From a virus: DNA of 64,000 nucleotides. The position numbers and the translations under genes are program-made. Under the pieces are notes generated by a model. That model saw only the letters and a program-made list of their open reading frames with translations, had not been told where the DNA came from and did not search any database. The DNA is taken from IMG/VR virus record IMGVR_UViG_3300018495_000103; one strand, 5' to 3'. Positions 50,463 to 52,050 of this stretch are shown here, one piece after another; position 1 is the stretch's first letter, and each line of letters opens with the position of its first letter.

Positions 50463-50669
50463 TTACCTCCCATACATCGGCCACAGGTCAGAATATTTTC
50501 TTACACCATCGCCAATTTTAATCCAAAAATAATCCTCTGCGTGTATTCTAAAGCACCAAACTTCTCCTGGGTCTGGTACATCTTGGGAGTGGCTACATAG
50601 CCACTCCCCATATTCTTCCATGCTCTGGAAATCAAACAGTTTCGGCCTCAGTATCCTCGTCCAGTCCAT
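50463..50669 (-). CDS. hypothetical protein (68 aa)
   Basis: ORF track. GGAGGAAG SD. Overlaps the ligase tail by 38 nt. Confidence 0.35.
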   Translation of the reverse strand: MDWTRILRPKLFDFQSMEEYGEWLCSHSQDVPDPGEVWCFRIHAEDYFWIKIGDGVRKYSDLWPMYGR

Positions 50670-52050
50670 CTGCTTCCTCCATATCAGGAGCCTCGGCGTT
50701 CTCCTTGATGATGCCTTCCAGCACCTTGAACTGGAAGTTCTTGTGCTTATAGGCGGTGAAAGTAGGACGATTGATTACACGAACTACGACGCCCTCACGG
50801 ATGTGAGTAGGGTCAATAGGCTCTTCACCATCGTAGAACTGTTCTGCCTTATTCAAGACCCATTCACCGGCAGAGATAGTGTCATCTTCCTTGGAACCAG
50901 GATTCTCGGGAATGAAGCCATACCAGTGCAGAGGAACGGTCTTAACACCCATGTACATACAACGATGACGCATCTGGTCAGGAGTGTACTCTACAACCTC
51001 GCCATCCTCGTTAGTCATGGTCATACGATATACATAGATATCGTTCTTGTGGTAGAAGGGGATGCGGTTTACAACATCACCTTGCTCATTGAACTCAAGT
51101 TCGTACTGAACACCAGGAGCGCAGCCGTAAGAGAAAGTAGTAGTCTCGCCATACTTCTTTACGAACTCCTTATCGTTCAGCTTCTTGTTGTTACATACGC
51201 CCATAATAGGCTGACCCTCGTGAGTGAAGCCAACAATCTCGTAGTAGACAGTCTCGCCCTTCAGCAACTTGCCCTCAAAGAAATCGTGATAAGGCTTACG
51301 GAACTCATTAGAGCCGTAGAAACCACCATCAAAAGTATCCAGAACAGTGCGGCGAGTACCAGATACATAACCCCAATCGTAGATAGGAGTGCCCTCACGA
51401 CGCAGGATAATATCCAGTAAAGTACGCTTAAAGCCCTTCAAAACCTTGGTATGAGAAGTACGAGCGGAAGTTCCGTGGAGCTTACGAGTAATCTCAATCA
51501 AGTCACCAGGCTTAAACACATGTAGGTTGTAAGCCAACTGCTCAGTATCAATGTGCTCATAGAACACAGGTGCGATAGAGCGCTTTGCCTTACGCTTTGC
51601 GCGCTTACCAGCACCGCCGGCCGCAGTTGCCTGATGCTTGCTGCGAGGAATGTACTTACGGCAGATTTCATGTCCATTCACAGTAGTGATGGAGTCGCCG
51701 ATATTCAAGGAGTCCATATCTACGCCAGTGTAGGCGAGACAAGACAAAGGTAGGAACAGACCATCAGACTGCTCACCACGCAGCTTAATTGCCTTTACAT
51801 TTCTCTTAGCGGGGTCCATATAGCCGCCGGAAACATTCTTTCCGTTCTCATATACAGCCAAAAGACCGTTCTTCTGACAAAACTCCATAGACAGCTGCAG
51901 GTCTACGGGGAAATATACACCAATCTCGCCCTCGGTGTACTTATCCTTTGCGACGCAGACAGTATTTACAAAGCAGGTTGCCAGAACCAGCTTATCTGCG
52001 TTAGGATGGGGACGTACATCCTTCAAAGTAGTTACATATCCACAATGCAT
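50632..52050 (-). CDS. ATP-dependent RNA ligase (Rnl2-like nucleotidyltransferase) with N-terminal Myf/EMAP-type tRNA-binding domain
   Basis: N-terminus ...VRPHPNADKLVLATC...IKLRGEQSDGLFL (tRNA-binding OB fold). Motif I ITRKLHGTS (T4 Rnl2 KIHGTN), motif IV-like YYEIVGFTHEG, motif V REGVVVRV...AYKHKNFQF (Rnl2 ...AIKCKNSKF). AAAGGAG RBS. Confidence 0.7.
   Translation of the reverse strand: MHCGYVTTLKDVRPHPNADKLVLATCFVNTVCVAKDKYTEGEIGVYFPVDLQLSMEFCQKNGLLAVYENGKNVSGGYMDPAKRNVKAIKLRGEQSDGLFLPLSCLAYTGVDMDSLNIGDSITTVNGHEICRKYIPRSKHQATAAGGAGKRAKRKAKRSIAPVFYEHIDTEQLAYNLHVFKPGDLIEITRKLHGTSARTSHTKVLKGFKRTLLDIILRREGTPIYDWGYVSGTRRTVLDTFDGGFYGSNEFRKPYHDFFEGKLLKGETVYYEIVGFTHEGQPIMGVCNNKKLNDKEFVKKYGETTTFSYGCAPGVQYELEFNEQGDVVNRIPFYHKNDIYVYRMTMTNEDGEVVEYTPDQMRHRCMYMGVKTVPLHWYGFIPENPGSKEDDTISAGEWVLNKAEQFYDGEEPIDPTHIREGVVVRVINRPTFTAYKHKNFQFKVLEGIIKENAEAPDMEEADGLDEDTEAETV

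Follow-up and report, generated by a model that had tools for sequence, protein, structure and literature searches.

The ligase gene and its product

The stretch of viral DNA described here (IMG/VR record IMGVR_UViG_3300018495_000103; 64,000 nucleotides, referred to below as the window) carries on its minus strand, at positions 50632–52050, a complete gene for a protein of 472 residues, which is probably an ATP-dependent Rnl5-type (DraRnl/NgrRnl) polynucleotide ligase, most likely acting as the sealing step of phage RNA repair. The open reading frame (ORF) begins with ATG, its coordinates include the stop codon, and it is a real gene with a strong ribosome-binding site: the Shine-Dalgarno sequence AAAGGAG (52059–52065, minus strand) can be read directly from the sequence, 8 nt 5' of the ATG. 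The product's enzymatic activity, its cofactor and substrate and its biological role are predictions; established here are the reading frame, its domain arrangement and fold, how far the catalytic residues are conserved, and which genes lie around it.

In the AlphaFold2 model, built on an alignment of 120 sequences (predicted local distance difference test, pLDDT, 93; predicted template modelling score, pTM, 0.90), a β-rich N-terminal domain (aa 1–133) is followed by a disordered linker (~134–165), a large C-terminal domain and a low-confidence tail, all encoded on the minus strand. The N-terminal part (51652–52050) is an oligonucleotide/oligosaccharide-binding (OB) domain that contains HPNADKL (aa 15–21), D50, RGEQSDG (aa 91–97) and K132; modelled separately it reaches a pLDDT of 95.5, and its fold subtype is the tRNA_bind-type OB. 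The linker, AAGGAGKRAKRKAKRS (aa 134–165; 51556–51651), is rich in Lys and Arg and of low pLDDT, with blocks of 52–82. The nucleotidyltransferase (adenylyltransferase) domain (aa 166–446; 50713–51555) carries the assigned motifs I (K190-L-H-G-T-S), Ia (G231-T-R233-R), III (E271-I-V-G274), IIIa (Y341-R342), IV (E419-G420-VVV-R424, within REGVVVR, aa 418–424) and V (K435-x-K437, within KHKNFQFK, aa 435–442); the first residue of KLHGT (aa 190–194; 51469–51483), K190, is the predicted AMP-accepting lysine and aligns with the motif I lysine of NgrRnl (KLDGS). Only ~35 residues lie past motif V, forming one helix and the acidic tail (aa 447–472 and the stop codon; 50632–50712), whose pLDDT is 46–76 over the last blocks; there is no C-terminal domain. 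All of the motifs quoted in a preliminary description of this DNA (HPNADKL, RG..S.G, KLHGT, motif IV and KHKNFQF) are thus found in the ORF.

The identical protein occurs on ~20 public metagenome contigs, the longest of 406 kb, and a megablast search with positions 44000–60000 of the window against GenBank phages returned zero matches, so that the phage has no close sequenced relative over that stretch. Since the exact protein is found on contigs of this length, and the window is full of phage genes without a close DNA relative in GenBank, the source is probably an uncultured jumbo phage.

Membership in the Rnl5 family

By sequence, the protein matches Pfam PF21189 ('PHA02142 OB-fold') over aa 6–102 (E=5.6e-7, above threshold; E=3.5e-8 with the N domain alone), Pfam PF09414 (RNA_ligase) over aa 185–429 (E=8e-6, 26.5 bits), the NCBIfam model of the DraRnl family, TIGR02306, over aa 9–196 only (E=6e-18, 64.8 bits) and, end to end, PHROG 968 'RNA ligase' (E=4e-68). 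The only solved structures matched by sequence are entries of the Naegleria gruberi RNA ligase (NgrRnl), which a profile of 120 homologs finds with E=4.8e-10; the alignment extends from the N domain up to and including motif I, and a second stretch pairs motif IV. This match and those to PF21189 and PHROG 968 are far above chance level. The full model superimposes on NgrRnl, with the OB domain packed against the nucleotidyltransferase domain; in structure comparison the latter is nearest, after Rnl5, to Rnl2/REL1, in keeping with the Rnl2-type motifs that had first been noticed in it. The top match in the viral structure library BFVD is a gut-virome protein named after the Naegleria ligase.

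This layout of OB and nucleotidyltransferase domains is already known; it is the published signature of the Rnl5 family, which NgrRnl and DraRnl define by an N-terminal OB domain without a C-terminal appendage (PMC4408790, PMC7261155, PMC5397189). The window protein has an N-terminal OB domain homologous to those of DraRnl and NgrRnl, nucleotidyltransferase motifs I–V with the motif I lysine, and nothing appended C-terminally. It has neither the layout of the Rnl1 family (an N-terminal nucleotidyltransferase and the Rnl1 C-terminal tRNA-specificity domain) nor that of the Rnl2 family (an N-terminal nucleotidyltransferase and the Rnl2 C-terminal helical domain); compared with T4 Rnl2, which has a C-terminal α-helical domain and no N-terminal OB, the order is reversed. 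The preliminary description had regarded the architecture as novel among characterised ligases and had credited Rnl5 with a different N-terminal OB. Both statements were wrong: PF21189 followed by PF09414 is the Rnl5 layout of DraRnl and NgrRnl, and the N domain is the same, a profile of 61 N domains of the family finding NgrRnl at E=4e-7. The N module of DraRnl was likened to the PheRS OB fold, as a putative homolog, by 2007, in a paper that also aligned a homolog from Aeromonas phage 44RR2.8t (PMC1807946), and by 2015 Rnl5 homologs were on record from Aeromonas, Caulobacter, Mycobacterium and Sinorhizobium phages (PMC4408790).

That the N domain has a tRNA-binding-type OB fold, as was first proposed, is borne out by its structural class, tRNA_bind, and by distant sequence matches: after NgrRnl, the profile of 61 N domains finds PheRS-beta (E=0.009–0.015) and MetRS C-terminal domains (0.025 and 0.16) and, further down, YgjH (0.31) and a human TyrRS chain (1.0), with these local matches mapping to the HPNAD and RG..S.G segments. 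All but one of the N domains (60/61) match PF21189 and 25/61 also match tRNA_bind weakly (best E=8.6e-5); the query stays below the gathering score of tRNA_bind (PF01588, 27 bits), scoring 12.7 bits (E=0.14) at full length and 17.3 bits as the N domain alone. Its OB domain has ~30 extra residues in common with NgrRnl (116 aligned, versus ~80–90 with tRNA_bind OBs). Unlike the OBs of that class (Trbp111, CsaA, YgjH, the MetRS C-terminal domain, PheRS-beta B2, EMAP II and Arc1p), it is fused to a ligase, and its documented role is catalytic.

The closest characterised relative in layout is NgrRnl (PDB 5COT, 6VT0-6VTG), the Rnl5 prototype, in which an embellished N-terminal OB likewise precedes the nucleotidyltransferase domain and no C-terminal module follows. 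The catalytic residues have aligned or assigned counterparts in it (K190=K170, E271=E227, E419=E312, K435/K437=K326), and among the N-domain contacts to ATP the alignment of hidden Markov models (HMMs) equates K132 with NgrRnl Lys121 and D50 with Asp53; a counterpart of NgrRnl Arg4 is not evident at the N terminus, and Arg149 and Thr145 were left unmapped, the HMM alignment over H166-x-D168-T169 being ambiguous by about one residue. Unlike NgrRnl, to which it is ~20% identical, the protein is 472 rather than ~340 residues long, with a longer, Lys/Arg-rich disordered linker, insertions of ~24 residues between motifs I and III and ~63 between motifs III and IV (residue mapping against NgrRnl), and an acidic C-terminal tail. 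Its motif I reads KLHG, as in DraRnl and T4 Rnl2, where NgrRnl has KLDG. DraRnl (DR_B0094), the founding member of Rnl5, shares with it the K-x-H-G motif, the N module likened to the PheRS OB and a DEDD-type exonuclease gene apparently in the same operon, and the essential Arg79 of its N domain probably corresponds to R91 of the RG..S.G segment, as judged from the published text (PMC1807946); it differs in being a cellular enzyme tied to radiation recovery, where the ligase here is a phage gene with partners of the polynucleotide kinase (PNK) type.

An exhaustive search places the protein in a family of 2,491 clusters at 50% identity (E<=1e-3), 741 of them with E<=1e-30, most of which are 405–490 residues long and align with the query over almost its whole length. 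In GenBank, 381 phage records have a homolog, among them 296 from Mycobacterium, 27 from Microbacterium, 22 from Gordonia, 15 from Prevotella and 8 from Bacillus; nearly all of the matches listed are annotated as 'RNA ligase'. Full-length PHROG 968 members such as those of Bacillus phage vB_BcoS-136 (AYP68305.1) and mycobacteriophage Whirlwind (gp87), 28–45% identical, share both domains as well as the basic linker and the acidic tail, carry the name 'RNA ligase' in GenBank and often lie beside a PNK gene.

In 120 diverse homologs, 34–85% identical to the query, K190 is invariant (120/120), and motif I is thus a genuine KxxG adenylation site, as the preliminary description had read it; H192 (117/120), G193 (119/120) and S195 (120/120) are conserved with it. 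So are R197 and R233 (118/120 each), E271 and G274 of motif III (120/120 each), Y341 (119/120), E419 (119/120) and G420 (120/120) of motif IV, and K435 and K437 of motif V (119/120 each). In the OB domain, K132 is kept in 115/120 and D50 in 98/120, the HPNAD residues in 103–111/120 and the RG..S.G residues in 110–119/120. The basic linker (mean 25 aa, 6.3 K/R against 1.3 D/E) and the acidic tail (mean 17 aa, 5.7 D/E against 1.2 K/R) are conserved family-wide; a β-hairpin insertion at aa ~313–333 sets the clade of the window, ~10% of the family representatives, apart from most PHROG 968 relatives. The ligase belongs to a large, phage-dominated, slightly expanded Rnl5 subclade (PHROG 968, typically 405–490 aa), in which the longer linker, the inter-motif insertions and the acidic tail are variations on the Rnl5 theme and not a new architecture.

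Some relatives carry inteins directly after motif I (KLHGTS). P0137 and P0142 (~800 aa) contain Hint/Intein_splicing domains and a LAGLIDADG homing endonuclease, P0150 and P0167 (~600 aa) have mini-inteins, and the other long relatives P0144, P0151, P0154, P0258, P0268 and P0236 are split at the same place. Insertion at such a position is typical of functionally critical sites.

Genomic neighbourhood

The ligase gene sits in a tightly packed minus-strand block that comprises an exonuclease gene, two paralogous small ORFs, the ligase and three further small ORFs. The exonuclease (52659–53567, minus strand; PF00929, E=8e-17) is of the RNase T/DEDD 3'-5' type and is probably encoded by the first gene of the ligase operon, as a putative partner: just upstream of it (53659–53606) are a hairpin resembling a terminator and a promoter-like site, and the next comparably strong promoter-like site is at 49952–49924, all of these being consensus matches only. 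From this arrangement, ligase and exonuclease appear to share a transcription unit. As a conserved partner of the ligase the exonuclease was dropped, since none of the five further phage loci that were inspected has it next to the ligase. The small ORFs between the two genes (52032–52388, 118 aa, and 52385–52666, 93 aa, minus strand) are tandem paralogs (30% identity, E=4e-13), neither with a Pfam or PHROG match.

Genes for other enzymes of RNA ends lie farther away on the same strand. A Thg1-like protein is encoded 3.2 kb upstream (55263–56153; PF04446, E=2e-28) and is cited as context only; its best match in the PDB is the Bacillus thuringiensis Thg1-like protein BtTLP (4kgk, E=2.5e-52). The Thg1 family comprises tRNA-His 5'-end guanylyltransferases and 3'-5' polymerase and repair enzymes. 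Homologs of the Thg1-like protein occur in 162 phage records, 15 of them from Prevotella, a Prevotella count equal to that of the ligase. Downstream, a Pnkp-type P-loop polynucleotide kinase (36839–37384; PF13671, E=5e-15; PHROG 505, E=3e-19), the putative 5'-end healing partner, overlaps by 4 bp with a metallophosphoesterase (36255–36842; PF12850, E=1.3e-9; PHROG 547, E=5e-46), the putative 3'-end healing partner. The kinase matches the bacterial Pnkp kinase region (TIGR04075, E=4e-13) and resembles T4-type PNK and the PNK that abuts the ligase gene in Bacillus phages vB_BcoS-136, Thrax1 and Thrax3. In Lysinibacillus phage LC76P1 the ligase and a PNK gene are two genes apart; in mycobacteriophage Whirlwind the distance is 11 genes. 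A PNK of the Whirlwind type occurs in 299 Mycobacterium phage records as compared with 296 for the ligase, these being counts at genus level and not record-level overlaps. The PNK of vB_BcoS-136 is a fusion of kinase and HD domains, unlike the split pair of the window. Three more calcineurin-type phosphoesterase genes (37853–38617, 56300–57040 and 57919–58809, minus strand), one of them NinI/lambda-phosphatase-like, are present in the window.

The window also has a complete NAD-dependent DNA ligase (LigA; 20347–22338, minus strand), separate from the RNA ligase, and the latter is therefore unlikely to be the DNA ligase of the phage. LigA is part of a replication module (1725–28516, minus strand) with Pol III alpha carrying a PHP domain, an SF1 helicase, a RecJ-like DHH protein, DnaB, ThyA, GyrA and GyrB, a bacterial-style replisome that fits a very large phage genome. 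On the other side of the ligase operon lies a T7 gp5.9-like RecBCD inhibitor (53645–53878, minus strand; PF25708, E=2.7e-8), directly downstream of a full-length sigma-70 family factor with regions 1.2, 2, 3 and 4 (53880–54800, minus strand; PHROG 351, E=1.7e-83).

The proximity of the RecBCD inhibitor, the abundance of Pol III alpha, DnaB, gyrase and RecJ-like genes and the apparent co-transcription with a DEDD exonuclease raise the alternative that the protein, together with this exonuclease, seals nicks at RNA–DNA junctions in replication, recombination or break repair. There is a parallel in DraRnl, which needs RNA only on the 3'-OH side of the break, whose deletion delays genome reassembly after irradiation, and whose operon also contains a DEDDh-like exonuclease gene, DR_B0095 (PMC5397189). 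Such a role in DNA transactions is nevertheless unlikely, as what recurs with the ligase in distant phages is an RNA-repair type of polynucleotide kinase and not a DNA-repair enzyme, the exonuclease is absent from the position beside the ligase in the five other loci examined, and with a complete LigA the sealing of DNA nicks is already covered.

A dense cluster for NAD+ metabolism (38787–46479, minus strand) encodes an NMNAT-like cytidylyltransferase (38787–39365), an AAA_28 kinase (39752–40279), NADAR (40280–40795), NAD synthase (40808–41614), NAMPT (42123–43670), Sir2 (44338–45111) and a PRPP synthetase, prs (45652–46479). Three other phages (Bacillus phage vB_BcoS-136, Lysinibacillus phage LC76P1 and Alishewanella phage Slicko01) likewise have a prs and NAMPT/NAPRT pair no more than a few kb from their ligase homolog, so that ligase and NAD salvage genes are recurrent neighbours in distant phages; this neighbourhood may simply be a counter-defence gene island. 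Between the cluster and the ligase, an 838-residue ORF (47373–49889, minus strand) matches the shoulder domain of the eukaryotic Major Vault Protein (PF11978, E=2e-23) and a vault repeat (PF17795, E=1.4e-8), and its end is formed by a long region rich in Glu, Ala and Lys that resembles a coiled coil; a vault-protein-like gene is unusual in a phage, and among 50,697 GenBank phage records only three 'uncultured phage' genomes of 462–735 kb have homologs (39–41% identity). A 502-residue SPFH/Band-7/flotillin-like protein (34118–35626, minus strand) is the second SPFH-related gene in the window beside the vault-like one. A PIN-PhoH fusion (32117–33226, minus strand) is a possible RNase/ATPase, and an ORF near the edge of the window (63145–63984, minus strand) covers the C-terminal part of DUF2828 (PF11443, E=2e-23) and, with the N-terminal part of the profile uncovered, may be split or truncated.

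Proposed mechanism and probable role in RNA repair

Sealing of duplex nicks with 3'-OH(RNA) and 5'-PO4 ends, with Mn2+ as the preferred metal, is characteristic of Rnl5 enzymes. In those characterised, the N domain is required for adenylylation of the ligase and for overall nick sealing, and is dispensable for step 3, the sealing of a pre-adenylylated nick (PMC1807946, PMC4408790, PMC7261155); in the NgrRnl–ATP–Mn complex it touches the γ-phosphate with Arg4 and with Lys121, and the second metal with Asp53 (PMC7261155). Its documented role is thus to assist lysine adenylylation through contact with the γ-phosphate of ATP; it is not known to direct the enzyme to tRNA. By analogy, the OB domain of the phage ligase would close over the nucleotidyltransferase active site and help to position ATP, with K132 and D50, as counterparts of Lys121 and Asp53, contacting the γ-phosphate and the second metal. 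K190 would then attack the α-phosphate to form ligase-(lysyl)-AMP, the AMP would be passed to the 5'-phosphate end, and attack by an RNA 3'-OH end would close the strand; most likely the enzyme prefers duplexes with a 3'-OH/5'-PO4 nick in which RNA provides the 3'-OH strand.

In the phage, the protein most likely provides the sealing step of an RNA 'heal and seal' repair that counters host ribonuclease defences, the healing steps falling to the Pnkp-type kinase and the overlapping metallophosphoesterase. This role is favoured by the link to PNK genes in relatives, by the kinase, phosphoesterase and Thg1-like genes of the window and by the separate DNA ligase. A role in RNA repair has been proposed generally for the ligases and PNKs of jumbo phages (PMC7824862), and the proposed logic is that of the T4 pathway of Pnkp and Rnl1, in which a kinase/phosphatase heals and an ATP-dependent ligase seals, countering host anticodon nucleases (PMC7824862, PMC12445682). 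T4 Rnl1 itself belongs to a different ligase family, owes its tRNA specificity to a C-terminal domain and seals single-strand breaks in loops; no Rnl5 member is known to be specific for tRNA.

A number of observations weigh against the assignment and the role proposed with it. The PF09414 score is slightly below its 27-bit threshold; that against TIGR02306 misses the cut-off for DraRnl equivalogs (151.15 bits), the match ending at motif I; and extra residues separate motif I from III and III from IV. A biochemically tested member of the expanded phage subclade was not found in the literature searched. The kinase and phosphoesterase lie 13 kb downstream of the ligase and not adjacent to it, and a tRNA scan of the 64-kb window found no tRNA gene, so that phage tRNA genes lend no support. 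The physiological role of Rnl5 ligases is described as uncharted, and the deletion phenotype of DraRnl relates to DNA repair (PMC5397189). The missed equivalog cut-off makes the ligase a member of a divergent subclade and not a strict DraRnl equivalog, and the two sub-threshold scores together mark its nucleotidyltransferase domain as divergent. These scores against curated ligase models could also suggest an inactive or repurposed homolog, for example one that only binds nucleotides or RNA, which is very hard to reconcile with the presence of all catalytic motif residues, nearly invariant among the homologs, with a highly confident model that superimposes on an active ligase, and with the abundance and conservation of the protein in metagenomes; we regard it as highly improbable.

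The substrate may include broken tRNAs. T4 Rnl2, a nick-sealing ligase, reseals a tRNA with a single nick in its anticodon stem (PMC12445682), which makes tRNA a reasonable and plausible substrate here. A stronger version of this idea, that of the preliminary description, holds that the OB domain is a tRNA-recognition module, serving a purpose like that of the C-terminal domain of T4 Rnl1: the OB and basic linker of the phage subclade may have kept or regained an affinity for tRNA, and the protein may be devoted to sealing tRNAs that host defence nucleases have nicked in stems or loops, in a toolkit with the kinase, the phosphoesterase, the Thg1-like enzyme and the RNase T-like exonuclease. 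The structural class of the OB domain speaks for this, as do a tRNA_bind signature stronger than that of NgrRnl in the HPNAD and RG..S.G residues, the conserved, flexible linker rich in Lys and Arg, and, as indirect support, a neighbourhood that includes a Thg1-like enzyme of tRNA 5' ends, an RNase T-like exonuclease and the pair of Pnkp-type kinase and phosphoesterase. However, the tRNA_bind threshold of Pfam is not reached, and the packing of the OB domain against the nucleotidyltransferase domain in the NgrRnl-superimposed model suggests that part of its surface is not free. Trbp111 and CsaA bind tRNA as dimers, whereas the fused OB is not known to dimerise. In both characterised homologs, moreover, the same domain is catalytic, acting in step 1 and nick sealing, and K132 and D50 are kept (PMC7261155), and the substrates of DraRnl and NgrRnl are nicked duplexes of a generic kind (PMC4408790, PMC5397189). 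Both the dedicated tRNA module and the regained affinity that would underlie it are therefore held only tentatively, as less probable than a catalytic OB in a sealing enzyme of RNA repair.

For the gene, these considerations provide a correct annotation and not a discovery: it can be named as an Rnl5-type ATP-dependent RNA ligase. The phage subclade to which it belongs, found repeatedly beside or near PNK genes and here near a Thg1-like gene, offers a tractable system for asking about the repair of tRNA and other RNA after anti-phage cleavage, and with its 2,491 clusters it is a possible source of new nick-sealing ligases for molecular biology. If the protein is a dedicated tRNA sealer, this would be the first defined physiological substrate for the Rnl5 family; the main value of the gene lies in the handle that it gives on the physiological substrates of Rnl5 ligases.

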